DNA from: Escherichia coli
Lineage (GTDB): Bacteria; Pseudomonadota; Gammaproteobacteria; Enterobacterales; Enterobacteriaceae
NCBI RefSeq assembly: GCF_036507355.1
Contig: NZ_AP027879.1
DNA: 47,389 nucleotides
Reading direction: 5' to 3' (one strand)
Each line of letters starts with the position of its first letter. Within the stretch, counting starts at the first letter, position 1. Both the position numbers and the translations under genes were made by a program. This document shows, one piece after another, positions 4,105 to 39,227 of this stretch. Below the pieces are notes generated by a model, which made no database searches, was not told the DNA's origin, and saw only the letters and a program-made list of their open reading frames with translations.

Positions 4105-4941
4105 TTATCCTCTGAAACCGTATGGTATTCTGATATCTAAGCCCTCACTTTCTTTATCTATTTTATAAGAAAACCTTAGCTTTGATGCTCTTCTTGCGAC
4201 TCTCTCAACGATTTTAACTTCGAGATGATTAATCTCTGTATATTGATTTATTTTTTCAATATTTTTTTGCAGAAAAACCTTATTAAAATCCTTAAAATTC
4301 TGATAAAGGTAAACTTTTTCGCCATTATCTATTCTGAATAATTCAAGTTCATCCTTTAATACATCTACTTCAATGTCGAAAAATGTCTTTTTACCACTGC
4401 TGTATTGTTTCCTGATAAACTGATAAAGCATATTTGAATTTTGATCAGCGAGTCTTACAGACGATATCAAAACCTGAGTAGTGTAAGAATCCTTTAACAT
4501 CGTGATATATGGCTCAATGACATGTGAAAAAGCAATATCAATATATCCTTCACTTTCAACATAATCACAAAACGCAGTCAGGTTCATAAGCCTGACTGCA
4601 TCAGAAGGTAATTTACCTCTCTTCTTCGTATGTCCAGAGCTTTGATTGCCCTGAGGTGTGAGAAGTTGATTTCGAGGAATGCGAATAACACTGGCCTGAA
4701 GTTCTTCTGCCCCCTCTTTCAACTGCCGGTAAGCACCTGTTACATCAATATCAGCGATAAATGCATATTCCCGAGCCGTAATACGAAAGGTTGCCCCCTC
4801 AGATAACTCTTCACGTGAATCAATCTGCGCCATAGCCATAAACAAAATTCTTCTGGCAGACAAAGGCAACGATGAGAATGTGCTGTTAATTTCATTTCTG
4901 TGGCGAATTTTTGTTTTCTTTGTAACGCTCAGTAAGTTCAT
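4105..4941 (-). CDS. repB: Rep_3-family iteron-plasmid replication initiator
   Basis: 278 aa; family assigned from overall resemblance to iteron-plasmid initiators; iterons and DnaA boxes lie directly upstream. Confidence 0.85.
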   Translation of the reverse strand: MNLLSVTKKTKIRHRNEINSTFSSLPLSARRILFMAMAQIDSREELSEGATFRITAREYAFIADIDVTGAYRQLKEGAEELQASVIRIPRNQLLTPQGNQSSGHTKKRGKLPSDAVRLMNLTAFCDYVESEGYIDIAFSHVIEPYITMLKDSYTTQVLISSVRLADQNSNMLYQFIRKQYSSGKKTFFDIEVDVLKDELELFRIDNGEKVYLYQNFKDFNKVFLQKNIEKINQYTEINHLEVKIVERVARRASKLRFSYKIDKESEGLDIRIPYGFRG

Positions 4942-5532: not shown

Positions 5533-6174
5533 CTTTGCGTAAACCCGGAGGACAGATCACTCTGAACCAAGACAACCACACATAAAAACAATATGCTCAT
5601 TTTTTAACCACTGTGCGTAAGTGCCTAATGTAATCCCTGTGCTATTCCGCTTCCTCGCTCACTAACTCGCTACACTCGGTCGTTCGGCTGCGGCGAGCGG
5701 TGTCTCCTTTCTCAAAACCAGAAGAGTTCAGCTCATACGATCCGTTGATTGATCCTTTTTGGATCTTTCACTGAGAAGCCCTGAATCGCTTTCTGCCGCT
5801 TCGTTCGATACAACCATGGTGAAACCATGCGAAATCGAAAAAATCGCTCAGAATGCGATACAGCGCGTTTTAGAGGGTATTTACAAAACAGTCGTTGCCT
5901 TGAGGAAATTTTGATCAAGATTGAACTCCTATCCGGATCATGGCAACAGATCACAGCAACAAGGCCGCTAAAAAGCGTTGAGCGGCGTTAAAAACCGTTA
6001 AACCGTAGCTGACTACAACGAAACGGGAAAAAACGCTCAGAACGCGTTACAGAGCGTTTTAAGGCGATGTCGGAAAGAGCCATATCTCACCTGTTCTGAT
6101 GTTTTTCTCAACATAAGCACTTTTAAGAGTGCTTTTAAAGATGCTATTATGCCAATGAGACAAGCGGAGGGCTT

Positions 6175-6426
6175 ATGAGCTATCAAATTCTGACAACTAC
6201 AGCGGCCAGTATTACTGACCTGAAAAAAAATCCTATGGGAACCGTAGCTGAAGGTGAAGGGGACGCTGTTGCGATCCTGAACCGAAACGAACCGGCGTTC
6301 TATTGCGTTCCACCAAAACTTTACGCCTACTATCGGGAACTCGCTGAAGATGCTGAGTTAAACGCTGTTGCTGATGAGCGCATGAAAAACCCGGAAATTG
6401 TGAAGGTTAACCTGGATGACCTATGA
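6175..6426 (+). CDS. stbD: Phd/YefM-family antitoxin
   Basis: 83 aa; overlaps the downstream toxin gene in typical TA arrangement. Confidence 0.85.
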   Translation: MSYQILTTTAASITDLKKNPMGTVAEGEGDAVAILNRNEPAFYCVPPKLYAYYRELAEDAELNAVADERMKNPEIVKVNLDDL

Positions 6427-6697
6427 ACTGGCTTTTGACCGTAGAGCACTGAAGGAATGGCAGAAACTCGGCCACACCATCCGTGAACAATTCAAAAAGA
6501 AACTGGCAGAACGGCTGGAAAATCCACGCGTACCCGCAGCCCGGTTACATGGTCATGCTGATCGCTATAAAATCAAACTTCGTGCATCTGGCTACAGACT
6601 TGTATACCAAGTCATTGATGAGAAAGTCGTTTTACTCGTTATTGCCGTTGGAAGAAGGGAAAGCAGCGAAGTCTATCAGATCGCAGATTTGCGCTAA
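6416..6697 (+). CDS. stbE: RelE/ParE-family toxin
   Basis: 93 aa; 11-bp overlap with stbD. Confidence 0.85.
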   Translation: MTYELAFDRRALKEWQKLGHTIREQFKKKLAERLENPRVPAARLHGHADRYKIKLRASGYRLVYQVIDEKVVLLVIAVGRRESSEVYQIADLR

Positions 6698-6771
6698 GAT
6701 TAATCATCAAATGATTGGTGATGCTGCCAACTTACTGATTTAGTGTATGATGGTGTTTTTGAGGTGCTCCA

Positions 6772-7047
6772 GTGGCTTCTGTTTCTATCAGCTGTCCCTC
6801 CTGTTCAGCTACTGACGGGGTGGTGCGTAACGGCAAAAGCACCGCCGGACATCAGCGCTATCTCTGCTCTCACTGCCGTAAAACATGGCAACTGCAGTTC
6901 ACTTACACCGCTTCTCAACCCGGTACGCACCAGAAAATCATTGATATGGCCATGAATGGCGTTGGATGCCGGGCAACAGCCCGCATTATGGGCGTTGGCC
7001 TCAACACGATTTTACGTCACTTAAAAAACTCAGGCCGCAGTCGGTAA
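6772..7047 (+). CDS. insA: IS1 InsA
   Basis: 91-aa zinc-finger protein [16 protein letters not shown]. Confidence 0.85.
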
Positions 7048-7469
7048 CCTCGCGCATACAGCCGGGCAGTGACGTCATCGTCTGCGCGGAAATGGACGAA
7101 CAGTGGGGCTATGTCGGGGCTAAATCGCGCCAGCGCTGGCTGTTTTACGCGTATGACAGGCTCCGGAAGACGGTTGTTGCGCACGTATTCGGTGAACGCA
7201 CTATGGCGACGCTGGGGCGTCTTATGAGCCTGCTGTCACCCTTTGACGTGGTGATATGGATGACGGATGGCTGGCCGCTGTATGAATCCCGCCTGAAGGG
7301 AAAGCTGCACGTAATCAGCAAGCGATATACGCAGCGAATTGAGCGGCATAACCTGAATCTGAGGCAGCACCTGGCACGGCTGGGACGGAAGTCGCTGTCG
7401 TTCTCAAAATCGGTGGAGCTGCATGACAAAGTCATCGGGCATTATCTGAACATAAAACACTATCAGTAA
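6966..7469 (+). CDS. insB: IS1 InsB frame (expressed as InsAB by -1 frameshift)
   Basis: InsB-like translation in the -1 frame overlapping the insA 3' end. Confidence 0.8.
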
Positions 7470-7484
7470 GTTGGAGTCATTACC

Positions 7485-7787
7485 AACCAGTTCACCACCT
7501 ACTCGCTCCGCGATTGTGGCAGTCTTCGAAATCCCCGGACGATCCGCCTTTATGAAAGTCTTGCTCAATTCAAATCTTCAGGCTTATGGGTTACTACTCA
7601 TGCTTGGTTAAATGACCGTTTCGTCTTACCGGAATCCCAGCAGAAGAACTTGGCAGAGTTGAAACGATCTTTCCTTGATCCTGCACTCAAGCAGATAAAT
7701 GAGAAAACACCTTTACTTGCTAAGTATAGTATTGATGATTCAGGAAAATTTCTGTTCTCAATAATTGATAAGCAAAATCCCGTCTGA
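7485..7787 (+). pseudogene. repA: 3' remnant of a second replication initiator gene, 5'-truncated by IS1
   Basis: Open frame from the IS1 junction encoding a Rep-like C-terminus (WLNDRFVLPESQQKNLAELKRSF...) followed by 37-bp iterons. Confidence 0.5.
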
Positions 7788-7837
7788 CATAAATCAGCAC
7801 ACATGAGCCTGTCATTTGACAAATTTTTGTCATGAAG

Positions 7838-8370
7838 ATGGGCGGATTTCCACACAGCACCGGCGCCCGGTAAGGTGGGCGGATTTCCACACAGCACCGG
7901 CGCCCGGCAAGGTGGGCGGATTCCCACACGGCACCGGCGCGCGGCAAGGTGGGCGGATTCCCACACGGCACCGGCGCGCGGCAAGGTGGGCGGATTTCCA
8001 CACAGCACCGGCGCCCGGCAAGGTGGGCGGATTCCCACACGGCACCGGCGCGCGGCAAGGTGGGCGGATTCCCACACGGCACCGGCGCGCGGCAAGGTGG
8101 GCGGATTTCCACACAGCACCGGCGCCCGGCAAGGTGGGCGGATTCCCACACGGCACCGGCGCGCGGCAAGGTGGGCGGATTCCCACACGGCACCGGCGCG
8201 CGGCAAGGTGGGCGGATTTCCACACAGCACCGGCGCCCGGCAAGGTGGGCGGATTCCCACACGGCACCGGCGCGCGGCAAGGTGGGCGGATTCCCACACG
8301 GCACCGGCGCGCGGCAAGGTGGGCGGATTTCCACACGGCACCGGCGCCCGGCAAGGTGGGCCGATTCCCA
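7838..8370. repeat. About 14 tandem 37-bp iterons (GGGCGGATTYCCACACRGCACCGGCGCSCGGCAAGGT); IncN-like origin array
   Basis: Head-to-tail direct repeats with two alternating variants; no spacers. Confidence 0.75.
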
Positions 8371-8861
8371 TATCGACATGTATGTAGCTTGTGTTATCTG
8401 TGGATTGTGCAGCTCAGCGGGTCGCTGGTCGTATGGCGGAGTGTCCCCCGTAACCGGCCGCGTGCGGCCGCTAACGCGCAGTACGGCGCCGCGTCCCGCA
8501 GACGGGCCGCCGTTCCCGCGCGCAGCACTGCGCACCCCCGTGGGGGACGTACGGCAGCTGCGTGGCGGTGAGCGGGATTAGGGCTTTGCAGCTACCGTGT
8601 TAAGTTCCCTGGTGTCGCTGAAATAGTTGATGAACATCCCCCTAAGCGTCAGCAGCAAGCTGCCGCCGCTTAGGCCCCGGAAATCACGCCCTTTACGTCG
8701 TAAACGCCGTAAAGCCCGCTCACCGGGGTTAAAAGGGATTACTTTGACTTCTTCATTGCTGTTCGCGAGTTAAGGCTAATCAGGGCAGGGGGTAGGGTGG
8801 CAGAATTTATAGCCCGGCAACCGGCTACGCCGGGCTTTCGGCGCCATTTTACAACACAGAC

Positions 8862-9918
8862 GGCTTTGTTGAATAAATCGAACTTTTGCTGAGTTGAAGG
8901 ATCAGATCACGCATCTTCCCGACAACGCAGACCATTCCGTGGCAAAGCAAAAGTTCAAAATAACCAACTGGCCCACCTACAATAAAGCCCTCATCAACCG
9001 TGGCTCCATAACTTTCTGGCTGGATGATGAAGCTATTCAGGCCTGGTATGAGTCGGCAACGCCTTCATCACGGGGAAGACCTCAGCGCTATTCTGATCTC
9101 GCCATCACCACCGTTCTGGTCATTAAACGCGTGTTCAGGTTGACCCTGCGGGCTGCACAGGGTTTTATTGATTCCATTTTTACACTGATGAATGTTCCGT
9201 TGCGCTGCCCGGATTACACCAGTGTCAGCAAGCGCGCAAAGTCGGTTAATGTCAGTTTCAAAACGTTCACCCGGGGTGAAATCGCGCATCTGGTGATTGA
9301 TTCCACCGGGCTGAAGGTCTTTGGTGAAGGCGAATGGAAAGTCAAAAAGCATGGCCAGGAACGCCGTCGTATATGGCGAAAGTTGCATCTGGCAGTTGAC
9401 AGCAACACACATGAAATCATCTGTGCAAACCTGTCGCTGAACAATGTGACGGACTCAGAAGCCTTCCCGGGTCTTATCCGGCAGACTCACAGAAAAATCA
9501 GGGCAGCATCGGCAGACGGCGCTTACGACACCCAACTCTGTCACGATGAACTGCGGCGTAAGAAAATCAGCGCGCTTATCCCGCCCCGAAAAGGCGCGGG
9601 TTACTGGCCCGGTGAATATGCAGACCGTAACCGTGCTGTTGCGAATCAGCGGCTGACCGGGAGTAATGCGCGGTGGAAATGGACAACAGATTACAACCGT
9701 CGCTCGATAGCGGAAACGGCGATGTACCGGGTAAAACAGCTGTTCGGAGGTTCACTGACACTGCGTGACTACGATGGTCAGGTTGCAGAGGCTATGGCCC
9801 TGGTACGAGCGCTGAACAAAATGACGAAAGCAGGTATGCCTGAAAGCGTGCGTATTGCCTGAAAACACAACCCGCTACGGGGGAGACTTACCCGAAATCT
9901 GATTTATTCAACAAAGCC
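8862..9918 (+). mobile_element. IS903-group insertion sequence (IS5 family), complete, 1057 bp
   Basis: 18-bp terminal inverted repeats GGCTTTGTTGAATAAATC; length matches IS903. Confidence 0.85.
8939..9862 (+). CDS. tnpA: IS903 transposase, 307 aa
   Basis: GTG start at VAKQKFKITNW; DDE transposase of the IS5 family. Confidence 0.85.
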   Translation: MAKQKFKITNWPTYNKALINRGSITFWLDDEAIQAWYESATPSSRGRPQRYSDLAITTVLVIKRVFRLTLRAAQGFIDSIFTLMNVPLRCPDYTSVSKRAKSVNVSFKTFTRGEIAHLVIDSTGLKVFGEGEWKVKKHGQERRRIWRKLHLAVDSNTHEIICANLSLNNVTDSEAFPGLIRQTHRKIRAASADGAYDTQLCHDELRRKKISALIPPRKGAGYWPGEYADRNRAVANQRLTGSNARWKWTTDYNRRSIAETAMYRVKQLFGGSLTLRDYDGQVAEAMALVRALNKMTKAGMPESVRIA

Positions 9919-10001
9919 GCGCGGGGCTAACAGGTAAGATGAAATTAAGGTTTTACGAACACTGCCACTGTAATTAATTACCGCTACTTTCATAAATCAC
10001 C

Positions 10002-10388
10002 TCAGAATTTTTTGTTGAACTTCTTAGGGTCGAAATTCTCACCGATTTTCTTGAAGAATTCTTTATCAATAATGCCGGGACTCTCTGCTTTTTTACTTTC
10101 CTGCACTTCAGGCTCAGACGGTTGTGTATTGTGCAATACACTTTCCGCTGCACCCTTCGCGCTACTCTTATCATGCGTATTGTGCAATACATTTTTTCGG
10201 TTTTGCCGCGTTCTATACAGTGCCATCTCAAGCCCTTTGGCTGTTACCGAAAAGCTGTATTCGCTGTCGAGGATTTCAGCAATTTCATGCCGCGTTAGCC
10301 CTCTGTCCAGCCAGTTCTCGATTTCATTTAGGCGCAATCTGACAGCAGCCGATAAGTTGCGGGGTTTCAGATCTGCTGGTTTATTCAT
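10002..10388 (-). CDS. Hypothetical DNA-binding protein with predicted HTH, 128 aa
   Basis: N-terminal region LDRGLTRHEIAEILD; lysine-rich C-terminus; repeat array directly upstream. Confidence 0.5.
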   Translation of the reverse strand: MNKPADLKPRNLSAAVRLRLNEIENWLDRGLTRHEIAEILDSEYSFSVTAKGLEMALYRTRQNRKNVLHNTHDKSSAKGAAESVLHNTQPSEPEVQESKKAESPGIIDKEFFKKIGENFDPKKFNKKF

Positions 10389-10445
10389 AACCCCCTCCGT
10401 TGTATGAAAATGACTCTACAACACTCGTAAGAAGGGGTCAATCGA

Positions 10446-10610
10446 GTTTTGTAGTTTATCTGTAGTTTTATTGTAGTCTATTTGTAGTCTGTCACGTTTT
10501 TTGTAGTTTATTTGTAGTTTTATTGTAGTCTATTTGTAGTCTTACAACACTAAGGCAAAACGTTTTTTGTAGTTTATCTGTAGTTTATCTGTAGTTTTTG
10601 GTTGCTCAGA
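10446..10610. repeat. Array of about 11 direct repeats of an 11-bp unit (YTGTAGTYTWT)
   Basis: Contiguous repeats upstream of the HTH gene; 22-bp palindrome ATGGTCATGCAAGCATGACCAT follows at 10610-10631. Confidence 0.6.
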
Positions 10611-10936
10611 TGGTCATGCAAGCATGACCATCAAAGAATAGGACGCTTTTTAGCCAAATGCCCCTTAACCTACGGAGATCGCCCTACCAAAAAAAGATGA
10701 TTTTTTATCCCTTAACCTGCTATACACCTAACGCAGCGTGATAAATCACGCTATCGCACTGATTTAAAAGAAAAAAAACAAAATTTAGCCATGCTGCGGT
10801 ATTACCCAGGTATTACAAATCAAATCTAAATTACTGATTTAAATAACTTTTTATTTATTACTTTGGTAATACTATGATTTCACCGTATTAGACACCCTTT
10901 TTTCGTTTAAAAAATGCACAAATTGAGGACTGAATG

Positions 10937-11870
10937 GGCTTTGTTGAATAAATCGAACTTTTGCTGAGTTGAAGGATCAGATCACGCATCTTCCCGACAA
11001 CGCAGACCGTTCCGTGGCAAAGCAAAAGTTCAAAATAACCAACTGGCCCACCTACAATAAAGCCCTCATCAACCGTGGCTCCATAACTTTCTGGCTGGAT
11101 GATGAAGCTATTCAGGCCTGGTATGAGTCAGCAACACCTTCTTCACGAGGCAGACCTCAGCGCTATTCTGACCTTGCCATCACGACTGTGCTGGTCATTA
11201 AACGCGTATTCAGGCTGACCCTGCGCGCTGCGCAGGGCTTTATTGATTCCATTTTTTCTCTGATGAACGTTCCGCTACGCTGCCCGGATTACAGCTGTGT
11301 CAGCAGGCGGGCAAAGTCGGTTAACGTCAGTTTCAAAACGTTCACCCGGGGTGAAATCGCGCATCTGGTGATTGATTCCACCGGGCTGAAGGTCTTTGGT
11401 GAAGGCGAGTGGAAAGTCAAAAAGCATGGCCAGGAACGCCGTCGTATATGGCGAAAGTTGCATCTGGCAGTTGACAGCAACACACATGAAATCATCTGTG
11501 CAGACCTGTCGCTGAACAATGTGACGGACTCAGAAGCCTTCCCGGGTCTTATCCGGCAGACTCACAGAAAAATCAGGGCAGCATCGGCAGACGGCGCTTA
11601 CGACACCCGGCTCTGTCACGATGAACTGCGGCGTAAGAAAATCAGCGCGCTTATCCCTCCCCGAAAAGGTGCGGGTTACTGGCCCGGTGAATATGCAGAC
11701 CGTAACCGTGCAGTGGCTAATCAGCGAATGACCGGGAGTAATGCGCGGTGGAAATGGACAACAGATTACAACCGTCGCTCGATAGCGGAAACGGCGATGT
11801 ACCGGGTAAAACAGCTGTTCGGGGGTTCACTGACGCTGCGTGACTACGATGGTCAGGTTGCGGAGGCTAT
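10937..11870 (+). mobile_element. Second IS903-group copy, 3'-truncated, lacks right IR
   Basis: Left IR intact; homology ends near 11870 where the Tn5393-type IR begins; several aa differences from copy 1. Confidence 0.75.
11014..11870 (+). pseudogene. tnpA: IS903-group transposase, 3'-truncated
   Basis: Reading frame runs into Tn5393 IR sequence after aa about 286. Confidence 0.6.
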
Positions 11871-11950
11871 GGGGTCGTTTGCGGGAGAGGGCGAAATCCT
11901 ACGCTAAGGCTTTGGCCAGCGATATTCTCCGGTAAGATTGATGTGTTCCC
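11870..11950. repeat. Tn5393-type 81-bp terminal inverted repeat
   Basis: GGGGTCGTTTGCGGGA... immediately downstream of the strB stop; a second, slightly divergent copy at 28388-28468. Confidence 0.55.
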
Positions 11951-11976
11951 AGGGGATAGGAGAAGTCGCTTGATAT

Positions 11977-12688
11977 CTAGTATGACGTCTGTCGCACCTG
12001 CTTGATCGCGGCCGCGATAGCTAGATCGCGTTGCTCCTCTTCTCCATCCGCGTTCCAAGCTGCGGAAAGGCACCCATAAGCGTACGCCTGGTCGAGCAGG
12101 CGACGCGGATCGACGTCCAGCGCACGAGAGAATGCGTCCGCCATCTGTGCAATGCGTCTAGGATCGAGACAAAGGTCGTCTCTGTCAGCCGGATCGTAGA
12201 ACATATTGGCGGCGCCAAAGCCCACTTCACCGACCAGACCGACGGGATCTATCACCAGCCAGCCGCGACTGGAGAACATGATGTTTTCATGATGCAGATC
12301 GCCATGTAGCCCACGCAGTTCCGAGGCATTGCTCATCATTTGATCGGCTATAATCGCCGCGTGGACGTAGTCAGTTTGACAACCTGCGTTTTGATCATCG
12401 CGCGCCCGCTGAAACAAAGCTGCAAAGCGATCCCGGATCGGGAGAAGGGCAGAAGGCAGGGGTTCCTCAGATGCGGCATACAGCTTCGCCATTAGTTCCG
12501 CTGCAATTTCGGTCGCCTGGTAGTCGCCGTGCTCGGCAACGATGTGAGAGAGCATTCGCTCCCCGGCATATTCGAGCAACATCAGATTGTTCTCACGACC
12601 GAGCAACCGGACTGCTCCCCTCCCATTGCGCCATACCAGATAGTCGGCCCCGCGCAGTTCATCAGCAATGTCTTCTATAGGTTTCAAT
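11977..12688 (-). pseudogene. strB: aph(6)-Id (strB), 5'-truncated by IS26
   Basis: Matches the C-terminal 237 aa of the full StrB at 27526-28362; N-terminal codons derive from the IS26 end. Confidence 0.85.
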
Positions 12689-13508
12689 GGCACTGTTGCA
12701 AAGTTAGCGATGAGGCAGCCTTTTGTCTTATTCAAAGGCCTTACATTTCAAAAACTCTGCTTACCAGGCGCATTTCGCCCAGGGGATCACCATAATAAAA
12801 TGCTGAGGCCTGGCCTTTGCGTAGTGCACGCATCACCTCAATACCTTTGATGGTGGCGTAAGCCGTCTTCATGGATTTAAATCCCAGCGTGGCGTTGATT
12901 ATCCGTTTCAGTTTGCCATGATCGCATTCAATCACGTTGTTCCGGTACTTAATCTGTCGGTGTTCAACGTCAGACGGGCACCGGCCTTCGCGTTTGAGCA
13001 GAGCAAGCGCGCGACCATAGGCGGGCGCTTTATCCGTGTTGATGAATCGCGGGATCTGCCACTTCTTCACGTTGTTGAGGATTTTACCCAGAAACCGGTA
13101 TGCAGCTTTGCTGTTACGACGGGAGGAGAGATAAAAATCGACAGTGCGGCCCCGGCTGTCGACGGCCCGGTACAGATACGCCCAGCGGCCATTGACCTTC
13201 ACGTAGGTTTCATCCATGTGCCACGGGCAAAGATCGGAAGGGTTACGCCAGTACCAGCGCAGCCGTTTTTCCATTTCAGGCGCATAACGCTGAACCCAGC
13301 GGTAAATCGTGGAGTGATCGACATTCACTCCGCGTTCAGCCAGCATCTCCTGCAGCTCACGGTAACTGATGCCGTATTTGCAGTACCAGCGTACGGCCCA
13401 CAGAATGATGTCACGCTGAAAATGCCGGCCTTTGAATGGGTTCATGTGCAGCTCCATCAGCAAAAGGGGATGATAAGTTTATCACCACCGACTATTTGCA
13501 ACAGTGCC
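12689..13508 (-). mobile_element. IS26, complete, 820 bp (copy a)
   Basis: 14-bp terminal IRs GGCACTGTTGCAAA; Tnp26 ORF. Confidence 0.95.
12741..13445 (-). CDS. tnp26: IS26 transposase Tnp26, N at position 184
   Basis: [18 protein letters not shown]...; residue 184 is N ([10 protein letters not shown]). Confidence 0.95.
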   Translation of the reverse strand: MNPFKGRHFQRDIILWAVRWYCKYGISYRELQEMLAERGVNVDHSTIYRWVQRYAPEMEKRLRWYWRNPSDLCPWHMDETYVKVNGRWAYLYRAVDSRGRTVDFYLSSRRNSKAAYRFLGKILNNVKKWQIPRFINTDKAPAYGRALALLKREGRCPSDVEHRQIKYRNNVIECDHGKLKRIINATLGFKSMKTAYATIKGIEVMRALRKGQASAFYYGDPLGEMRLVSRVFEM

Positions 13509-13561
13509 CGCTCCAGATAGTCATCACCGATGAATCAGGCTCCAGTCGAACGGAGGAACTG

Positions 13562-17783: not shown

Positions 17784-19081
17784 CAACGTTTTCTGCCTCT
17801 GACGCCTCTTTTAATGGTCTCAGATGTCCTTTGGTCACCAGTTCTGCCAGCGTGAAGGAATAATGGCCGAGCATATTGATATGTCCGTGGCAAAGCGGGG
17901 AGAGGCGTGCGATATCTTCATCATTCAGTGTTTCACCCTGCGCCCGGAGATGATCCAGGGCTGCCTGCATATAAATAGTGTTCCATAACACGACGGCGTT
18001 AGTGACCAGCCCCAGTGTGCCCAGTTGATCTTCCTGACCGTCGGTATATCGTTTTCTTATCTCACCTTTTTGACCGTGACAGATGGCTCTGGCAACGGCA
18101 TGGCGACTTTCTCCCCGATTAAGCTGGGTCAGAATGCGCCGGCGGTAATCTTCATCATCAATATAATTAAGCAGATACAGCGTTTTGTTGATGCGCCCCA
18201 CTTCAATGATTGCCTGAGTCAGTCCGGAAGGACGTTCACTTTTCAGCAATGAACGGACCAGCACTGAAACCTGTACTTTGCCCAGCTTCAGGGAGCCAGC
18301 GGTCCGGATCATTTCGTCCCACTGAAGGACTATTTTTCGGGGATCTGATTGCCCTCTGGCAATATCATTCAGCACGCCATAGTCGGCATCATGGTCCATT
18401 CGCCAGAAAACCGAAGCACCGGCATCAGCCAGGCGTGGAGAAAACTGGTATCCCAGCAGCCAGAAAAGGCCAAAGACAAGTTCGCTGGCACCTGCTGTAT
18501 CGGTCATAATTTCGGTTGGATTCAGCCCGGTCTCCTGTTCCAGAAGACCTTCCAGCACAAAGATAGAGTCCCTCAGCGTCCCCGGTATAACGATGCCATG
18601 AAAGCCGGAATACTGATCGGACACAAAGTTGTACCAGGTGATCCCTCTGTTATTACCAAAGTATTTGCGGTTCGGTCCGGCATTGATTGTTCTGACTGGC
18701 GTAACAAAGCGCATTCCATCTGCAGATGCCACTTCTCCTCCACCCCATATCTGTGCCAGTGGCAGCGTTGCCTGAAAATCAACCAGTCTGGCATTAGCGC
18801 TGGTGATAGTTTCAGCCCGCAGATAGTTCGCTTTTGTCCAGTTCAGCCGGTGTCGGGTCAGTGCAGGAACATTTGATCTGATCAGTGGTTCCAGACCGAT
18901 ATTGCAGGCTTCAGCCATCAGCACGGCGCTGATGCTGACGGGCAGATCATCAACTCTGGCACTGGCTTCACTAGCATGGAAAAACTCATCAGCAAATCCG
19001 GTATGGGCGTTAATTTCGAGCAGCAACTCCGTTAAATCCACCGGAGGGAGTAGATCACTGATCATTTTGCTCAGTCGTTTC
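17779..19081 (-). pseudogene. tnpA: Tn3-family transposase TnpA (Tn2/Tn3), 5'-truncated by IS26
   Basis: 435-aa C-terminal portion ending inside the Tn3 IR; N-terminus replaced by IS26. Confidence 0.85.
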
Positions 19082-19901
19082 GGCACTGTTGCAAATAGTC
19101 GGTGGTGATAAACTTATCATCCCCTTTTGCTGATGGAGCTGCACATGAACCCATTCAAAGGCCGGCATTTTCAGCGTGACATCATTCTGTGGGCCGTACG
19201 CTGGTACTGCAAATACGGCATCAGTTACCGTGAGCTGCAGGAGATGCTGGCTGAACGCGGAGTGAATGTCGATCACTCCACGATTTACCGCTGGGTTCAG
19301 CGTTATGCGCCTGAAATGGAAAAACGGCTGCGCTGGTACTGGCGTAACCCTTCCGATCTTTGCCCGTGGCACATGGATGAAACCTACGTGAAGGTCAATG
19401 GCCGCTGGGCGTATCTGTACCGGGCCGTCGACAGCCGGGGCCGCACTGTCGATTTTTATCTCTCCTCCCGTCGTAACAGCAAAGCTGCATACCGGTTTCT
19501 GGGTAAAATCCTCAACAACGTGAAGAAGTGGCAGATCCCGCGATTCATCAACACGGATAAAGCGCCCGCCTATGGTCGCGCGCTTGCTCTGCTCAAACGC
19601 GAAGGCCGGTGCCCGTCTGACGTTGAACACCGACAGATTAAGTACCGGAACAACGTGATTGAATGCGATCATGGCAAACTGAAACGGATAATCAACGCCA
19701 CGCTGGGATTTAAATCCATGAAGACGGCTTACGCCACCATCAAAGGTATTGAGGTGATGCGTGCACTACGCAAAGGCCAGGCCTCAGCATTTTATTATGG
19801 TGATCCCCTGGGCGAAATGCGCCTGGTAAGCAGAGTTTTTGAAATGTAAGGCCTTTGAATAAGACAAAAGGCTGCCTCATCGCTAACTTTGCAACAGTGC
19901 C
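19082..19901 (+). mobile_element. IS26, complete (copy b)
   Basis: 14-bp IRs, 820 bp. Confidence 0.95.
19145..19849 (+). CDS. tnp26: IS26 transposase Tnp26, N at position 184
   Basis: Identical protein to copy a. Confidence 0.95.
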   Translation: MNPFKGRHFQRDIILWAVRWYCKYGISYRELQEMLAERGVNVDHSTIYRWVQRYAPEMEKRLRWYWRNPSDLCPWHMDETYVKVNGRWAYLYRAVDSRGRTVDFYLSSRRNSKAAYRFLGKILNNVKKWQIPRFINTDKAPAYGRALALLKREGRCPSDVEHRQIKYRNNVIECDHGKLKRIINATLGFKSMKTAYATIKGIEVMRALRKGQASAFYYGDPLGEMRLVSRVFEM

Positions 19902-20600
19902 GTTTATTCTTCCTATACGTGCCGCGTTCCAGGCGGCGACTATGAGGGCTATGTCGATGCCCATGTGCGCCGGCTGGAGGCGCTACGCCGGGCCGGTATC
20001 GTCGAGCGGATCGACGCCGACCAATGGCGCATCCCCGATGATCTGGTCAGCCGTGCCGCCGCCCATGACGCCGGCCGAGACAGTCAGGCCAGCGTTCGCG
20101 TCCTTTCCCCGGTCGATCTGAACAAACAGATCGGATCGGACGGCGCGACCTGGCTGGACCGGCGGCTGATCCACGGCGAGACGGCCGACCTTGCGCCAAC
20201 CGGCTTCGGGCAACAAGTCCGCGAAGCCATGGACCAGCGCCGCGAGCACCATATCGAACAGGGCGACGCCACCCGCAGCCGGGACAGCCGCGTCTTCTAC
20301 CGGCGCAACCTTCTCGCCATCCTGCGGGAGCGCGAGGTAGCCGGCGTCGGATCGGATATGGCTTTGAGTAAGGGCCTGCCGTTCCGCGCCGCCACGGACG
20401 GCGAGAGCGTCAGCGGCAAGTTTACCGGAACCGTGCATCTATCGAGCGGCAAGTTCGCCGTGGTCGAGAAATCCCATGAGTTCACCCTTGTCCCGTGGCG
20501 GCCGATCATCGACCGCCAACTCGGCCGCGAGGTTATGGGCATCGTGCAGGGCGGGTCGGTGTCGTGGCAGTTAGGGCGGCAGAGGGGGCTGGAACGCTGA
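19902..20600 (+). pseudogene. Relaxase-like (VirD2-type) C-terminal fragment, as seen upstream of floR
   Basis: Frame is open from the IS26 boundary; no intact start; GC-rich. Confidence 0.4.
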
Positions 20601-20816
20601 GTGCGCCCATGCCGCATTGCGAAGCAAAAGATAATCGGATAAAATGTAGCAATTCATATTCGTAAGCGTGGAGTAATCAGATGGGAAATTCCAAGTCAGC
20701 AGACAAGTAAGCCGCAACAACCAGTATTGTTGTTGCGGCGCTCTGTAAGGCTAGTCTCATCTGATTGCTGACGAGCAGACGTCGCCCGGTATTCCTTAAT
20801 CGAGGGTTGATTCGTC

Positions 20817-22031
20817 ATGACCACCACACGCCCCGCGTGGGCCTATACGCTGCCGGCAGCACTGCTGCTGATGGCTCCTTTCGACATCCTCGCTTCACTG
20901 GCGATGGATATTTATCTCCCTGTCGTTCCAGCGATGCCCGGCATCCTGAACACGACGCCCGCTATGATCCAACTCACGTTGAGCCTCTATATGGTGATGC
21001 TCGGCGTGGGCCAGGTGATTTTTGGTCCGCTCTCAGACAGAATCGGGCGACGGCCAATTCTACTTGCGGGCGCAACGGCTTTCGTCATTGCGTCTCTGGG
21101 AGCAGCTTGGTCTTCAACTGCACCGGCCTTTGTCGCTTTCCGTCTACTTCAAGCAGTGGGCGCGTCGGCCATGCTGGTGGCGACGTTCGCGACGGTTCGC
21201 GACGTTTATGCCAACCGTCCTGAGGGTGTCGTCATCTACGGCCTTTTCAGTTCGATTCTGGCGTTCGTGCCTGCGCTCGGCCCTATCGCCGGAGCATTGA
21301 TCGGCGAGTTCTTGGGATGGCAGGCGATATTCATTACTTTGGCTATACTGGCGATGCTCGCACTCCTAAATGCGGGTTTCAGGTGGCACGAAACCCGCCC
21401 TCTGGATCAAGTCAAGACGCGCCGATCTGTCTTGCCGATCTTCGCGAGTCCGGCTTTTTGGGTTTACACTGTCGGCTTTAGCGCCGGTATGGGCACCTAC
21501 TTCGTCTTCTTCTCGACGGCTACCCGTGTGCTCATAGGCCAAGCGGAATATTCCGAGATCGGATTCAGCTTTGCCTTCGCCACTGTCGCGCTTGTAATGA
21601 TCGTGACAGCCCGTTTCGCGAAGTCCTTTGTCGCCAGATGGGGCATCGCAGGATGCGTGGCGCGTGGGATGGCGTTGCTTGTTTGCGGAGCGGTCCTGTT
21701 GGGGATCGGCGAACTTTACGGCTCGCCGTCATTCCTCACCTTCATCCTACCGATGTGGGTTGTCGCGGTCGGTATTGTCTTCACGGTGTCCGTTACCGCG
21801 AACGGCGCTTTGGCAGAGTTCGACGACATCGCGGGATCAGCGGTCGCGTTCTACTTCTGCGTTCAAAGCCTGATAGTCAGCATTGTCGGGACATTGGCGG
21901 TGGCACTTTTAAACGGTGACACAGCGTGGCCCGTGATCTGTTACGCCACGGCGATGGCGGTACTGGTTTCGTTGGGGCTGGTGCTCCTTCGGCTCCGTGG
22001 GGCTGCCACCGAGAAGTCGCCAGTCGTCTAA
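20817..22031 (+). CDS. floR: Florfenicol/chloramphenicol MFS exporter FloR
   Basis: 404 aa starting MTTTRPAWAYTLPAALLLMAPFDIL; 12-TM MFS. Confidence 0.95.
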   Translation: MTTTRPAWAYTLPAALLLMAPFDILASLAMDIYLPVVPAMPGILNTTPAMIQLTLSLYMVMLGVGQVIFGPLSDRIGRRPILLAGATAFVIASLGAAWSSTAPAFVAFRLLQAVGASAMLVATFATVRDVYANRPEGVVIYGLFSSILAFVPALGPIAGALIGEFLGWQAIFITLAILAMLALLNAGFRWHETRPLDQVKTRRSVLPIFASPAFWVYTVGFSAGMGTYFVFFSTATRVLIGQAEYSEIGFSFAFATVALVMIVTARFAKSFVARWGIAGCVARGMALLVCGAVLLGIGELYGSPSFLTFILPMWVVAVGIVFTVSVTANGALAEFDDIAGSAVAFYFCVQSLIVSIVGTLAVALLNGDTAWPVICYATAMAVLVSLGLVLLRLRGAATEKSPVV

Positions 22032-22369: not shown

Positions 22370-24193
22370 ACTGGCTGGCAATGTCTAGCAACGGCAGGCA
22401 TTTCGGCTGAGGGTAAAAGAACTTTCCGCTAAGCGATAGACTGTATGTAAACACAGTATTGCAAGGACGCGGAACATGCCTCATGTGGCGGCCAGGACGG
22501 CCAGCCGGGATCGGGATACTGGTCGTTACCAGAGCCACCGACCCGAGCAAACCCTTCTCTATCAGATCGTTGACGAGTATTACCCGGCATTCGCTGCGCT
22601 TATGGCAGAGCAGGGAAAGGAATTGCCGGGCTATGTGCAACGGGAATTTGAAGAATTTCTCCAATGCGGGCGGCTGGAGCATGGCTTTCTACGGGTTCGC
22701 TGCGAGTCTTGCCACGCCGAGCACCTGGTCGCTTTCAGCTGTAAGCGTCGCGGTTTCTGCCCGAGCTGTGGGGCGCGGCGGATGGCCGAAAGTGCCGCCT
22801 TGCTGGTTGATGAAGTACTGCCTGAACAACCCATGCGTCAGTGGGTGTTGAGCTTCCCGTTTCAGCTGCGTTTCCTGTTTGCCAGCCGGCCCGAGATCAT
22901 GGGGTGGGTGCTGGGCATCGTTTACCGCGTCATTGCCACGCACCTGGTCAAGAAAGCGGGCCATACCCACCAAGTGGCCAAGACGGGCGCGGTCACCCTG
23001 ATCCAGCGTTTTGGATCGGCGCTCAATCTGAATGTTCACTTCCACATGCTGTTTCTCGACGGTGTGTATGTCGAGCAATCCCACGGCTCAGCGCGTTTCC
23101 GCTGGGTCAAGGCGCCGACCAGCCCAGAGCTCACCCAGCTGACGCACACCATCGCCCACCGGGTGGGTCGCTATCTGGAACGGCAAGGCCTGCTGGAACG
23201 GGATGTCGAAAACAGCTATCTGGCCTCGGATGCGGTGGATGACGACCCGATGACACCCCTGCTGGGGCACTCGATCACTTACCGTATCGCTGTCGGTTCA
23301 CAGGCGGGGCGAAAGGTGTTCACTTTGCAAACTCTGCCGACCAGTGGTGATCCGTTCGGTGACGGGATTGGCAAGGTAGCCGGGTCCAGCCTGCACGCCG
23401 GCGTGGCGGCCAGGGCCGATGAACGCAAGAAGCTCGAACGGCTGTGCCGGTACATCAGCCGCCCGGCGGTATCCGAGAAGCGGCTGTCGTTAACACGAGG
23501 CGGCAACGTGCGCTACCAGCTCAAGACGCCGTACCGGGACGGCACCACGCACGTCATTTTCGAACCATTGGATTTCATTGCAAGGCTGGCCGCCCTGGTA
23601 CCGAAGCCCAGAGTCAACCTAACCCGCTTCCACGGGGTGTTCGCACCCAACAGTCGGCACCGGGCGTTGGTCACGCCGGCAAAACGGGGCAGGGGCAACA
23701 AGGTCAGGGTGGCTGATGAACCGGCAACACCAGCACAACGGCGAGCGTCGATGACATGGGCGCAACGGCTCAAGCGTGTTTTCAATATCGACATCGAGAC
23801 CTGCAGCGGCTGCGGCGGCGCCATGAAAGTCATCGCCTGCATTGAAGACCCTATAGTGATCAAGCAGATCCTTGATCACCTGAAGCACAAAGCCGAAACC
23901 AGCGGGACCAGGGCGTTACCCGAAAGCCGGGCGCCACCGGCTGAGCTGCTCCTGGGTCTGTTTGACTGACGAGCCTGAAGGCCAACGATACCAATCAAAA
24001 TGCTGCGTTCACAGCGCCGCGGCAGGGATCCGCCGTGCTGGTTGTCGGAAAAGGAGCCGCTAGTGGGAAAGAGGAGGGTAAATTTTCAGCGTTGCTGGCT
24101 CCCCGTCAGCCGGATTGGGTTGCATCGCAGGGGTGTCGAAAGAGTCAACTGCGGTCCAAAGCTGTTGGACTTGGGTGAAAAGGGCGTTTATTC
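22370..24193 (+). mobile_element. ISCR2 (IS91-like rolling-circle element); boundaries approximate
   Basis: Contains the ISCR2 transposase; right side ends at an IS26 fragment. Confidence 0.5.
22476..23969 (+). CDS. ISCR2 rolling-circle transposase
   Basis: 497 aa with HUH/zinc-binding motifs (CESCHAEHLVAFSCKRRGFCPSCGARRM). Confidence 0.9.
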   Translation: MPHVAARTASRDRDTGRYQSHRPEQTLLYQIVDEYYPAFAALMAEQGKELPGYVQREFEEFLQCGRLEHGFLRVRCESCHAEHLVAFSCKRRGFCPSCGARRMAESAALLVDEVLPEQPMRQWVLSFPFQLRFLFASRPEIMGWVLGIVYRVIATHLVKKAGHTHQVAKTGAVTLIQRFGSALNLNVHFHMLFLDGVYVEQSHGSARFRWVKAPTSPELTQLTHTIAHRVGRYLERQGLLERDVENSYLASDAVDDDPMTPLLGHSITYRIAVGSQAGRKVFTLQTLPTSGDPFGDGIGKVAGSSLHAGVAARADERKKLERLCRYISRPAVSEKRLSLTRGGNVRYQLKTPYRDGTTHVIFEPLDFIARLAALVPKPRVNLTRFHGVFAPNSRHRALVTPAKRGRGNKVRVADEPATPAQRRASMTWAQRLKRVFNIDIETCSGCGGAMKVIACIEDPIVIKQILDHLKHKAETSGTRALPESRAPPAELLLGLFD

Positions 24194-24448: not shown

Positions 24449-25268
24449 GGCACTGTTGCAAAGTTAGCGATGAGGCAGCCTTTTGTCTTATTCAAAGGCC
24501 TTACATTTCAAAAACTCTGCTTACCAGGCGCATTTCGCCCAGGGGATCACCATAATAAAATGCTGAGGCCTGGCCTTTGCGTAGTGCACGCATCACCTCA
24601 ATACCTTTGATGGTGGCGTAAGCCGTCTTCATGGATTTAAATCCCAGCGTGGCGTTGATTATCCGTTTCAGTTTGCCATGATCGCATTCAATCACGTTGT
24701 TCCGGTACTTAATCTGTCGGTGTTCAACGTCAGACGGGCACCGGCCTTCGCGTTTGAGCAGAGCAAGCGCGCGACCATAGGCGGGCGCTTTATCCGTGTT
24801 GATGAATCGTGGGATCTGCCACTTCTTCACGTTGTTGAGGATTTTACCCAGAAACCGGTATGCAGCTTTGCTGTTACGACGGGAGGAGAGATAAAAATCG
24901 ACAGTGCGGCCCCGGCTGTCGACGGCCCGGTACAGATACGCCCAGCGGCCATTGACCTTCACGTAGGTTTCATCCATGTGCCACGGGCAAAGATCGGAAG
25001 GGTTACGCCAGTACCAGCGCAGCCGTTTTTCCATTTCAGGCGCATAACGCTGAACCCAGCGGTAAATCGTGGAGTGATCGACATTCACTCCGCGTTCAGC
25101 CAGCATCTCCTGCAGCTCACGGTAACTGATGCCGTATTTGCAGTACCAGCGTACGGCCCACAGAATGATGTCACGCTGAAAATGCCGGCCTTTGAATGGG
25201 TTCATGTGCAGCTCCATCAGCAAAAGGGGATGATAAGTTTATCACCACCGACTATTTGCAACAGTGCC
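24449..25268 (-). mobile_element. IS26, complete (copy c)
   Basis: 14-bp IRs, 820 bp. Confidence 0.95.
24501..25205 (-). CDS. tnp26: IS26 transposase Tnp26, N at position 184
   Basis: Same protein as copies a and b. Confidence 0.95.
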
Positions 25269-25846: not shown

Positions 25847-26662
25847 ATGAATAAATCGCTCATCATTTTCGGCATCGTCAACATAACCTCGGACAGTTTC
25901 TCCGATGGAGGCCGGTATCTGGCGCCAGACGCAGCCATTGCGCAGGCGCGTAAGCTGATGGCCGAGGGGGCAGATGTGATCGACCTCGGTCCGGCATCCA
26001 GCAATCCCGACGCCGCGCCTGTTTCGTCCGACACAGAAATCGCGCGTATCGCGCCGGTGCTGGACGCGCTCAAGGCAGATGGCATTCCCGTCTCGCTCGA
26101 CAGTTATCAACCCGCGACGCAAGCCTATGCCTTGTCGCGTGGTGTGGCCTATCTCAATGATATTCGCGGTTTTCCAGACGCTGCGTTCTATCCGCAATTG
26201 GCGAAATCATCTGCCAAACTCGTCGTTATGCATTCGGTGCAAGACGGGCAGGCAGATCGGCGCGAGGCACCCGCTGGCGACATCATGGATCACATTGCGG
26301 CGTTCTTTGACGCGCGCATCGCGGCGCTGACGGGTGCCGGTATCAAACGCAACCGCCTTGTCCTTGATCCCGGCATGGGGTTTTTTCTGGGGGCTGCTCC
26401 CGAAACCTCGCTCTCGGTGCTGGCGCGGTTCGATGAATTGCGGCTGCGCTTCGATTTGCCGGTGCTTCTGTCTGTTTCGCGCAAATCCTTTCTGCGCGCG
26501 CTCACAGGCCGTGGTCCGGGGGATGTCGGGGCCGCGACACTCGCTGCAGAGCTTGCCGCCGCCGCAGGTGGAGCTGACTTCATCCGCACACACGAGCCGC
26601 GCCCCTTGCGCGACGGGCTGGCGGTATTGGCGGCGCTGAAAGAAACCGCAAGAATTCGTTAA
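25847..26662 (+). CDS. sul2: Sulfonamide-resistant dihydropteroate synthase Sul2
   Basis: 271 aa starting MNKSLIIFGIVNITSDSFSDGG. Confidence 0.95.
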   Translation: MNKSLIIFGIVNITSDSFSDGGRYLAPDAAIAQARKLMAEGADVIDLGPASSNPDAAPVSSDTEIARIAPVLDALKADGIPVSLDSYQPATQAYALSRGVAYLNDIRGFPDAAFYPQLAKSSAKLVVMHSVQDGQADRREAPAGDIMDHIAAFFDARIAALTGAGIKRNRLVLDPGMGFFLGAAPETSLSVLARFDELRLRFDLPVLLSVSRKSFLRALTGRGPGDVGAATLAAELAAAAGGADFIRTHEPRPLRDGLAVLAALKETARIR

Positions 26663-26722
26663 CTGCACATTCGGGATATTTCTCTATATTCGCGCTTCAT
26701 CAGAAAACTGAAGGAACCTCCA

Positions 26723-27526
26723 TTGAATCGAACTAATATTTTTTTTGGTAAATCGCATTCTGACTGGTTGCCTGTCAGAGGCGGAGAATCTGGTGATTTT
26801 GTTTTTCGACGTGGTGACGGGCATGCCTTCGCGAAAATCGCACCTGCTTCCCGCCGCGGTGAGCTCGCTGGAGAGCGTGACCGCCTCATTTGGCTCAAAG
26901 GTCGAGGTGTGGCTTGCCCCGAGGTCATCAACTGGCAGGAGGAACAGGAGGGTGCATGCTTGGTGATAACGGCAATTCCGGGAGTACCGGCGGCTGATCT
27001 GTCTGGAGCGGATTTGCTCAAAGCGTGGCCGTCAATGGGGCAGCAACTTGGCGCTGTTCACAGCCTATCGGTTGATCAATGTCCGTTTGAGCGCAGGCTG
27101 TCGCGAATGTTCGGACGCGCCGTTGATGTGGTGTCCCGCAATGCCGTCAATCCCGACTTCTTACCGGACGAGGACAAGAGTACGCCGCAGCTCGATCTTT
27201 TGGCTCGTGTCGAACGAGAGCTACCGGTGCGGCTCGACCAAGAGCGCACCGATATGGTTGTTTGCCATGGTGATCCCTGCATGCCGAACTTCATGGTGGA
27301 CCCTAAAACTCTTCAATGCACGGGTCTGATCGACCTTGGGCGGCTCGGAACAGCAGATCGCTATGCCGATTTGGCACTCATGATTGCTAACGCCGAAGAG
27401 AACTGGGCAGCGCCAGATGAAGCAGAGCGCGCCTTCGCTGTCCTATTCAATGTATTGGGGATCGAAGCCCCCGACCGCGAACGCCTTGCCTTCTATCTGC
27501 GATTGGACCCTCTGACTTGGGGTTGA
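26723..27526 (+). CDS. strA: Aminoglycoside 3''-phosphotransferase APH(3'')-Ib
   Basis: 267 aa; classic sul2-strA-strB order. Confidence 0.95.
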   Translation: MNRTNIFFGKSHSDWLPVRGGESGDFVFRRGDGHAFAKIAPASRRGELAGERDRLIWLKGRGVACPEVINWQEEQEGACLVITAIPGVPAADLSGADLLKAWPSMGQQLGAVHSLSVDQCPFERRLSRMFGRAVDVVSRNAVNPDFLPDEDKSTPQLDLLARVERELPVRLDQERTDMVVCHGDPCMPNFMVDPKTLQCTGLIDLGRLGTADRYADLALMIANAEENWAAPDEAERAFAVLFNVLGIEAPDRERLAFYLRLDPLTWG

Positions 27527-28362
27527 TGTTCATGCCGCCTGTTTTTCCTGCTCATTGGCACGTTTCGCAACCTGTTCTCATTGCGGACACCTTTTCCAGC
27601 CTCGTTTGGAAAGTTTCATTGCCAGACGGGACTCCTGCAATCGTCAAGGGATTGAAACCTATAAAAGACATTGCTGATGAACTGCGCGGGGCCGACTATC
27701 TGGTATGGCGCAATGGGAGGGGAGCAGTCCGGTTGCTCGGTCGTGAGAACAATCTGATGTTGCTCGAATATGCCGGGGAGCGAATGCTCTCTCACATCGT
27801 TGCCGAGCACGGCGACTACCAGGCGACCGAAATTGCAGCGGAACTAATGGCGAAGCTGTATGCCGCATCTGAGGAACCCCTGCCTTCTGCCCTTCTCCCG
27901 ATCCGGGATCGCTTTGCAGCTTTGTTTCAGCGGGCGCGCGATGATCAAAACGCAGGTTGTCAAACTGACTACGTCCACGCGGCGATTATAGCCGATCAAA
28001 TGATGAGCAATGCCTCGGAACTGCGTGGGCTACATGGCGATCTGCATCATGAAAACATCATGTTCTCCAGTCGCGGCTGGCTGGTGATAGATCCCGTCGG
28101 TCTGGTCGGTGAAGTGGGCTTTGGCGCCGCCAATATGTTCTACGATCCGGCTGACAGAGACGACCTTTGTCTCGATCCTAGACGCATTGCACAGATGGCG
28201 GACGCATTCTCTCGTGCGCTGGACGTCGATCCGCGTCGCCTGCTCGACCAGGCGTACGCTTATGGGTGCCTTTCCGCAGCTTGGAACGCGGATGGAGAAG
28301 AGGAGCAACGCGATCTAGCTATCGCGGCCGCGATCAAGCAGGTGCGACAGACGTCATACTAG
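27526..28362 (+). CDS. strB: Aminoglycoside 6-phosphotransferase APH(6)-Id
   Basis: 278 aa from MFMPPVFPAHW; 1-bp overlap with the strA stop. Confidence 0.95.
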   Translation: MFMPPVFPAHWHVSQPVLIADTFSSLVWKVSLPDGTPAIVKGLKPIKDIADELRGADYLVWRNGRGAVRLLGRENNLMLLEYAGERMLSHIVAEHGDYQATEIAAELMAKLYAASEEPLPSALLPIRDRFAALFQRARDDQNAGCQTDYVHAAIIADQMMSNASELRGLHGDLHHENIMFSSRGWLVIDPVGLVGEVGFGAANMFYDPADRDDLCLDPRRIAQMADAFSRALDVDPRRLLDQAYAYGCLSAAWNADGEEEQRDLAIAAAIKQVRQTSY

Positions 28363-29692: not shown

Positions 29693-29788
29693 TTTATCAC
29701 TGATAAATATAATATGTCCACCAACTTATCAGTGATAAAGAATCCGCGCGTTCAATCGGACCAGCGGAGGCTGGTCCGGAGGCCAGAC
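29693..29788. promoter_or_regulatory. tetR/tetA divergent promoter region with tet operator palindromes
   Basis: ACTTTATCACTGATAAA and CTTATCAGTGATAAAG between the divergent genes. Confidence 0.7.
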
Positions 29789-32770: not shown

Positions 32771-33491
<721 letters not shown>

Positions 33492-39081: not shown

Positions 39082-39227
39082 CCTGGGTTAACTTTGTTTT
39101 AGGGCGACTGCCCTGCTGCGTAACATCGTTGCTGCTCCATAACATCAAACATCGACCCACGGCGTAACGCGCTTGCTGCTTGGATGCCCGAGGCATAGAC
39201 TGTACAAAAAAACAGTCATAACAAGCC
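39082..39227. promoter_or_regulatory. attI1 recombination site region of a class 1 integron
   Basis: GCCCTAAAACAAAGTTAACC between intI1 start and the first cassette. Confidence 0.6.

Follow-up and report, generated by a model that had tools for sequence, protein, structure and literature searches.

By sequence comparison, a 1018 bp segment (9919-10936) within a 47,389-nucleotide stretch of the Escherichia coli contig NZ_AP027879.1 (hereafter the window) is the traK–stbA intergenic region, the stbA gene and the start of stbB of an IncN conjugative plasmid of the R46/pKM101/pCU1 family, now lying between two insertion sequences (IS) of the IS903 group. Each part of the segment can be identified, and stbA, the nic core of the origin of transfer (oriT) and an array of direct repeats are all intact, while no gene for a relaxase or for the mating pore of a type IV secretion system (T4SS) was found in the window. 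We consider it highly probable that the whole is an IncN remnant that combines a helper-dependent oriT with an autoregulated StbA/stbS stability site, the mechanism being carried over from plasmid R388 and from pKM101/pCU1. The original prediction, made from the letters of the window alone, had correctly placed two directly oriented IS903-group copies around 9919-10936, and it missed the IncN origin of the backbone, the complete oriT with its nic site and the 25-codon stump of stbB. The segment is not a new locus, since all of its components are already known, annotated and common in public plasmids. Along the window, the features are:

8862-9918, plus strand: complete IS903-group element (copy 1), 1057 bp, whose right end cuts stbB after codon 25
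9919-9993, minus strand: 5′ stump of stbB, 25 codons of a 238-codon gene for a ParA-like ATPase, with its ATG at 9993-9991
10002-10388, minus strand: intact stbA, 128 amino acids, identified as an open reading frame and by NCBIfam StbA_2
10413-10441, minus strand: stbA promoter-like site, a consensus match only
10449-10599, plus strand: array of eleven 11-bp-phased direct repeats with the core TGTAGTYT, the presumed StbA binding array (stbS/stbDR equivalent)
10609-10632, no strand assigned: perfect palindrome of 11+2+11, GATGGTCATGC-AA-GCATGACCATC, between the repeat array and the nic region
10719-10752, minus strand: oriT core with hairpin and nic, 97.5% identical to R46
10770-10933, minus strand: AT-rich relaxase-side half of oriT, the presumed binding region of the accessory protein TraK
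10934-10936, plus strand: ATG of the gene that occupies the traK position and opens the relaxosome operon, aligned with R46 19991-19993
10937-11872, plus strand: IS903-group copy 2, 3′-truncated to its first 936 bp, in the same orientation as copy 1

The segment aligns end to end with positions 19991-21007 of R46 (reference sequence NC_003292), a stretch that opens with the traK start codon, takes in oriT and stbA and ends at the beginning of stbB. The R46 coding sequence in the traK position occupies 19577-19993, and here everything beyond its ATG is replaced by IS903 copy 2. At the opposite end, stbA, which adjoins oriT, is followed by the 25 codons of stbB, the remainder of stbB and the whole of stbC having been deleted by IS903. 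The stump is 95-98% identical to the stbB start of R46 (20934-21007) and of the IncN plasmid pRHBSTW-00133_3. The latter is self-transmissible and shares both the stbA allele and the TGTAG array with the window, in the company of a MobF relaxase gene (traI), a coupling protein gene (traJ), the traK/oriT/stbA order seen here, stbB and stbC. A gene next to oriT on the leading side, with stbB (encoding a deviant Walker A ATPase) and stbC behind it, is an StbA-family feature that the allele shows in that plasmid and that the present copy keeps only as far as the stbB stump. Because both allele and array occur there in a full IncN context, they represent a genuine IncN backbone variant, and the suggestion that the array should be sought in other plasmids is answered by its presence upstream of that same allele. 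From 10934-10936 through the stbA start, the alignment contains no internal deletion relative to R46, to pRHBSTW-00133_3 or to pFIA-191659 (NZ_CP080350.1, IncFIA/IncR). An Rfam scan of 8500-12000 gave no match.

The product of the 128-codon reading frame had been described as a helix-turn-helix (HTH) protein preceded by repeats, with a homology search proposed to name it. That search identifies it as StbA: the protein matches the NCBIfam StbA_2 equivalog NF041290 with 204 bits (cut-off 100) over residues 7-128, the R46 StbA matches the same model, and PLSDB annotates the frame as stbA, 'plasmid stabilization protein StbA'. A precomputed Pfam family, PF28167, is listed for all homologues and is newer than the Pfam-A library used in our scan, where a Clr5 match (E 0.045) was at chance level; this candidate was rejected, as was a spurious match to bS20 in a sequence search of the PDB. 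Residues ~10-70 of the protein form an N-terminal three-helix HTH domain; a disordered linker containing two VLHNT units follows, and the C-terminal end has short helices. This is the StbA-family arrangement of a three-helix HTH followed by a poorly structured C-terminal part.

Within the stbA coding sequence, the VLHNT units are encoded by an 8-2-8 inverted repeat, GTGTATTG-NN-CAATACAC, present twice (10123-10144 and 10174-10195) and invariant between stbA alleles that otherwise diverge. It is part of a 51-bp (17-codon) unit that occurs in 1 to 4 copies among StbA homologues, whose lengths are 111, 128, 143-145 and 150 amino acids. In R46, the repeat is located at 20735-20746, 20786-20797 and 30006-30017, TATTGNNCAATA is found four times where 0.03 would be expected by chance, and a further exact copy lies ~20 bp upstream of an SprT-like gene. 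The position of this further copy suggests an operator for some regulator, making the GTGTATTG-NN-CAATACAC palindrome a candidate site of that kind.

The repeat array comprises eleven copies of TGTAGTYT, all on the plus strand and all within 10450-10597, in agreement with the earlier count of about 11. They form sets of four, four and three boxes (10450-10490, 10502-10542 and 10568-10597) with exact 11-bp spacing within sets, and Tandem Repeats Finder (TRF) likewise returns a period of 11. Outside the array the motif is absent from the window, where 1.5 copies would be expected by chance, and none of 100 shuffles reached 11. Directly downstream of the array begins the −35 element of the promoter-like site (TTGACC, 10441-10436), followed by a 17-nt spacer and the −10 element (TAGAGT, 10418-10413), with one inverted TGTAG box at 10416-10420 lying over the −10. 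Direct repeats of 11-bp period in the gene's own promoter region are an StbA-family feature, and since this site, placed between the array and the start of stbA, corresponds in position to the autoregulated promoter of stbA in R388, the array is best read as, and is presumed to be, the stbS/stbDR equivalent for this StbA allele. The original prediction of a partition or regulatory locus was thus well founded: the gene is stbA, and the repeats are positioned like the stbDR/stbS repeats bound by StbA in R388. The palindrome reported beside the array is also present as described, with arms that are 100% complementary, a single-stranded DNA folding z-score of −4.6, 100% conservation in same-allele relatives and a core, TCATGCTTGCATGA, that is kept in R46.

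Next to the palindrome, the segment displays the features of an IncN (MOB_F11) oriT, namely a relaxase-recognized nic sequence, a hairpin just 5′ of nic and a traK–stbA intergenic region that is present in full. The hairpin AGCGTGA-TTTA-TCACGCT (10752-10735) is followed on the minus strand by GCGTTAGGTGT/ATAGC (10734-10719; the slash marks nic). The hairpin is predicted at −7.5 kcal/mol (z −2.8) and differs from R46 by one base; the nic sequence itself is identical in R46, and its core matches the pKM101 nic sequence CGTTAGGTGT/ATAGC. Positions 2-11 of GCGTTAGGTGT equal the pKM101 oriT11 oligonucleotide of the TraI co-crystal, the first base in the genome being G, which places nic between 10724 and 10723 on the minus strand. 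The 80-bp core around it (10690-10769) shares 97.5% identity with R46. In vitro, the relaxase of pCU1/pKM101 nicks this site sequence-specifically, and the accessory protein TraK is thought to supply binding specificity at oriT. On the relaxase side of nic, inverted GTAATACC-type motifs occur at 10799-10815 and 10856-10872, and of these TAGTATTACCAAAGTAATAAA is unchanged in R46 despite an overall identity of 71% in this part of oriT; the GTAATACC-type motifs are candidate TraK sites. Because transfer runs 5′ to 3′ from nic, the array and stbA would be the first to reach a recipient, and the position of stbA here agrees with that in R388 and its relatives, where the stb genes are on the leading side.

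How such a segment could work is best described from R388, where stbA is next to oriT and the binding site of StbA, in its own promoter region, consists of 9-bp repeats in two sets of five, with 2-bp spacers that give an 11-bp period. In that plasmid the repeats are needed both for stability and for StbA control of conjugation, StbA represses its own and other promoters, and StbA with its repeats suffices for stabilization without StbB. Deletion of R388 stbB abolishes conjugation only when StbA is present, and StbB is dispensable for stability. By analogy, the N-terminal HTH of the StbA encoded here would bind the 11-bp-phased TGTAG repeats, one box per helical turn, and the array-bound protein would repress its own promoter, which abuts the array. 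The same binding would create a centromere-like complex that stabilizes the carrier without a plasmid-encoded nucleoside triphosphatase (NTPase), and StbA and the array may in this way add to segregational stability.

As the window has no relaxase or mating-pore gene, the oriT would need a helper in order to act. TraK, the MOB_F relaxase TraI, the coupling protein and the T4SS would all come from an IncN plasmid in the same cell; TraI would cut CGTTAGGTGT/ATAGC on the minus strand, and the carrier would be mobilized with stbA entering the recipient first. An IncN helper could, by this route, mobilize the carrier plasmid, though StbA bound beside oriT would hinder mobilization until the helper also provides StbB. 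Since R388 StbA beside oriT blocks transfer without StbB, the stbB-less copy found here is probably transfer-locked until a helper supplies that protein. A multiresistance region that has no relaxase of its own and still carries an intact IncN oriT could thus be mobilized whenever a broad-host-range IncN plasmid shares its cell, and the orphan StbA with its array, as stabilizer and mobilization gate, may be of interest to specialists.

Identity to R46 is uneven along the segment, as set out below in the direction from traK to stbB:

10936-10770: traK-proximal oriT, 71% DNA identity to R46
10769-10690: hairpin and nic core, 97.5% DNA identity to R46
10608-10389: repeat array and promoter, 44% DNA identity to R46
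10388-10191: stbA codons 1-66 (HTH domain), 40% DNA identity to R46
10190-10002: stbA codons 67-128, 87% DNA identity to R46
10001-9919: stbB stump, 95% DNA identity to R46

At the protein level, the first 66 codons of stbA share about one third identity with their R46 counterpart. The divergent block, 10191-10608 (against R46 20310-20700), therefore holds the HTH half of StbA and the array, between flanks of 97.5% identity (nic core) and 87-95% identity (stbA 3′ half and stbB), and its right-hand limit is the first palindrome inside stbA. Across IncN lineages, the HTH half changes in step with the array, as would be anticipated of a protein with its site, and the exchange of the two as a unit between these lineages is a second aspect that may interest specialists.

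Several points weigh against the reading of the segment as a working stability and transfer site. Binding, autoregulation, partition and mobilization are all extrapolated, from R388 (with ~25% identity in the HTH) and from R46/pKM101, and the R388 StbA structure was not recovered by Foldseek or by sequence searches of the PDB. Identity to R46 falls to only 71% in the third of oriT nearest traK, which makes recognition by a given helper's TraK uncertain. The window already contains a ParA-type partition ATPase and a toxin–antitoxin pair, so a stability role for StbA may be redundant. Finally, the near-identity of the unit in hundreds of plasmids could reflect the recent spread of one resistance region and not selection.

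In the likeliest of the alternatives, the segment is correctly identified and is nonetheless functionally dead IncN debris, hitch-hiking in a successful resistance region. Its neighbors are indeed scraps (the iteron-bearing 3′ end of repA, truncated forms of IS903 and strB, and several copies of IS26), stbB beyond the stump, stbC and all relaxosome genes are gone, and both the partition ATPase and toxin–antitoxin pair of the host region and the possibility that high identity among carriers means recent common descent point the same way. However, the nic core, the hairpin and stbA, complete with promoter and entire array, survive as a set, and the IS elements break in immediately beyond this functional block, one at the start codon of traK and the other at codon 25 of stbB. 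The same stbA–array–oriT block is kept at 5883-7221 of pFIA-191659, which was truncated independently and has end-points that differ from those of the window: a 63-codon stbB stump, part of traK and an IS26 boundary. The ability of R388 StbA and its repeats to stabilize without StbB also speaks against debris, and we judge this alternative unlikely, if still worth serious consideration. A more ambitious version of the functional reading would have selection maintain the block of stbA, array and oriT across hundreds of resistance plasmids outside IncN, through NTPase-free segregation and a StbA-locked oriT opened by IncN StbB, TraK and relaxase, with the HTH half and the array as an exchangeable specificity cassette bounded by the nic core and the 8-2-8 palindromes in stbA; this we advance tentatively, as a doubtful extension.

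The structure of the IS copies bears on a different alternative. Copy 1 contains a transposase open reading frame of 322 amino acids (8894-9862), has GGCTTTGTTGAATAAATC as its terminal inverted repeats and is labeled 'IS5 family transposase' in identical plasmids. Its flanks, AACACAGAC on the left and GCGCGGGGC on the right, differ, so copy 1 has no 9-bp target duplication, as had been noted; GACTGAATG lies to the left of copy 2. Copy 2 has lost its final 121 bp, and with them its outer inverted repeat; a Tn5393-type terminal repeat and a truncated strB stand there instead. The two copies share 95.7% DNA identity (40 mismatches in 936 bp), and their transposases differ at 8 residues within the first 301, which upholds the earlier view that they are not a recent duplication. 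Terminal repeat and strB gene, aph(6)-Id, together account for 11873-12735 behind copy 2, and the 5′ end of the gene is replaced by IS26 at ~12689.

The original prediction had further compared the arrangement to a composite transposon, and this part of it fails. An active IS903 composite transposon that acquired the stbA segment and now carries it as a block from plasmid to plasmid would fit the two directly oriented IS903-group copies around the segment, the presence of the unit in many plasmid backbones and the fact that both copies are complete in some IncR plasmids, where copy 2 is annotated IS903B. Such an element would have both outer IS ends intact, whereas copy 2 of the window stops at 11872, without its outer 121 bp and inverted repeat. 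Besides the missing duplication at copy 1, no 9-bp duplication surrounds the whole IS903–stbA/oriT–IS903 unit in the two IncR plasmids compared that have a complete copy 2 (L004 and L005), where the right flanks are ACGGTGTGG and CGTAGGCAA, respectively, and the left flank for comparison is AACACAGAC. All listed relatives have an identical 62-bp flank at the left junction and differ from one another at the right junction, which fits one inherited region rearranged at the right-hand IS and not repeated transposition. Each of the inner junctions falls within a gene of the IncN backbone, stbB or traK, which is what insertions and deletions in such a plasmid would produce. We regard movement as a composite transposon as very improbable; the IS copies mark where deletions and rearrangements ended and are not a vehicle by which the segment was acquired. 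Least credible of all, to the point that we give it practically no weight, is an iteron-type replication origin with its initiator or regulator: 11-bp-phased direct repeats beside a small DNA-binding protein lend it a superficial resemblance, but the protein is an StbA equivalog and not Rep, in complete IncN plasmids the array is remote from the replicon, in the interval between oriT and stbA, the genuine iterons of IncN are separate 37-bp repeats (7835-8370), and the window has its own Rep initiator (4105-4941).

The simplest account of how an IncN remnant came to lie between these copies is that an IncN plasmid or an IncN–IncR cointegrate was eroded by IS903 insertions, deletions and rearrangements, after which the remaining patch was passed on by inheritance and underwent reshuffling at its right-hand IS903. 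The region has been carried into IncR-type plasmids and then into other multiresistance plasmids. Segment 9919-10936 is present in 1875 PLSDB plasmids, 830 of which are typed 'mobilizable', and at least 503 PLSDB plasmids hold at least 80% of 8800-11950, the IS903-bracketed unit with short flanks. MOB-suite classes the IncR carriers as 'mobilizable' and lists no relaxase for them.

To the left of copy 1 lies a second IncN scrap (7482-8591), made up of ~300 bp from the end of repA and a 37-bp RepA iteron array of 14.5 copies (7835-8370), with 87-97% identity between the repA/iteron sequence and R46 32157-32983; the long six-frame open reading frames across 7598-8581 are artefacts of the 37-bp repeat. 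Its terminal portion, 8389-8591, is 83% identical to three dispersed repeats of the R46 leading region (23442-23658, 24783-24985 and 25993-26202). The 270 bp between this scrap and copy 1 (8592-8861) are not IncN, and match many large Klebsiella plasmids at ~95% over a stretch without annotated features. A simple replacement by copy 1 of the IncN backbone between stbB and repA was considered and rejected, because the orientation of the repA scrap relative to stbA is opposite to that in R46 and the 270-bp non-IncN piece intervenes before the IS, which together argue for more than one deletion in the history of the region.

The remainder of the window comprises a replicon and maintenance region and a resistance region. 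The former encodes a serine recombinase, the ParA-type ATPase, DDP3, the Rep initiator and a RelE/StbE toxin, and matches an IncX1-typed hybrid plasmid. The latter carries floR, sul2, strAB, a TEM beta-lactamase gene, sul3 and two copies of a tetracycline-efflux gene, and is a typical IS26-built mosaic with duplicated modules. Five IS26 copies are present (12689-13509, 19079-19905, 24449-25268, 37596-38415 and 40234-41054), and a complete sul2 - aph(3'')-Ib - aph(6)-I cluster occurs separately at 25847-28362. The two copies of the 424-amino-acid tetracycline-efflux-type gene, at 29714-30988 and 42882-44156, show 73% DNA identity to tet(C) of R46, and an intI1 fragment at 39090-40233 that abuts IS26 is 100% identical to R46.

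Compared with known systems, the arrangement shares with Tn903 the presence of two IS903-group copies around a short segment. The IS903 copies of Tn903 are inverted, whereas those described here are direct, one is truncated, target duplications are absent and there is no sign that the whole has moved as a unit. A different comparison is offered by 'region N' of many IncR plasmids, which consists of an IncN repA remnant, 37-bp iterons, IS903B and IS1 (PMC9412624); the window has the same order of IS1, repA remnant, iterons and IS903, after which the stbA/oriT unit follows. An R46-family oriT was found with oriTfinder on pKPN945B, a transferable IncR plasmid, and was proposed, without proof, to explain its transfer (PMC11537061, 2024); R46-family oriT sequences on IncR plasmids also appear in a review (PMC12310702). 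The window differs from 'region N' plasmids and pKPN945B in that its replicon region is not IncR but matches the IncX1-typed hybrid, and stbA and its repeat array are not described in the two IncR papers (PMC9412624 and PMC11537061).

With R388, the likeness is one of organization. In both cases, a small two-domain protein has an N-terminal three-helix HTH and a disordered C-terminal part, stbA adjoins oriT on the leading side, and sets of repeats with an 11-bp period overlap the promoter region. In contrast, the similarity between the two proteins is below phmmer detection, the box is TTGCATCAT in R388, the array is organized as 5+5 there and as 4+4+3 here, and the StbB and StbC partners have been lost from the present copy. 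With R46, pKM101 and pCU1 (MOB_F11), the differences are that stbB is cut and stbC and traKJI are absent here, and that R46 has an 11-bp box of the TACATCA type at the same place, beside a divergent StbA HTH domain, where the box here is of the TGTAG type. The R46 oriT reportedly contains 13 direct 11-bp repeats. The order of traK start, oriT, stbA and stbB is the same as in these plasmids, and R46 and the window both have an 11-bp-phased array upstream of an stbA that belongs to the same NCBIfam equivalog.

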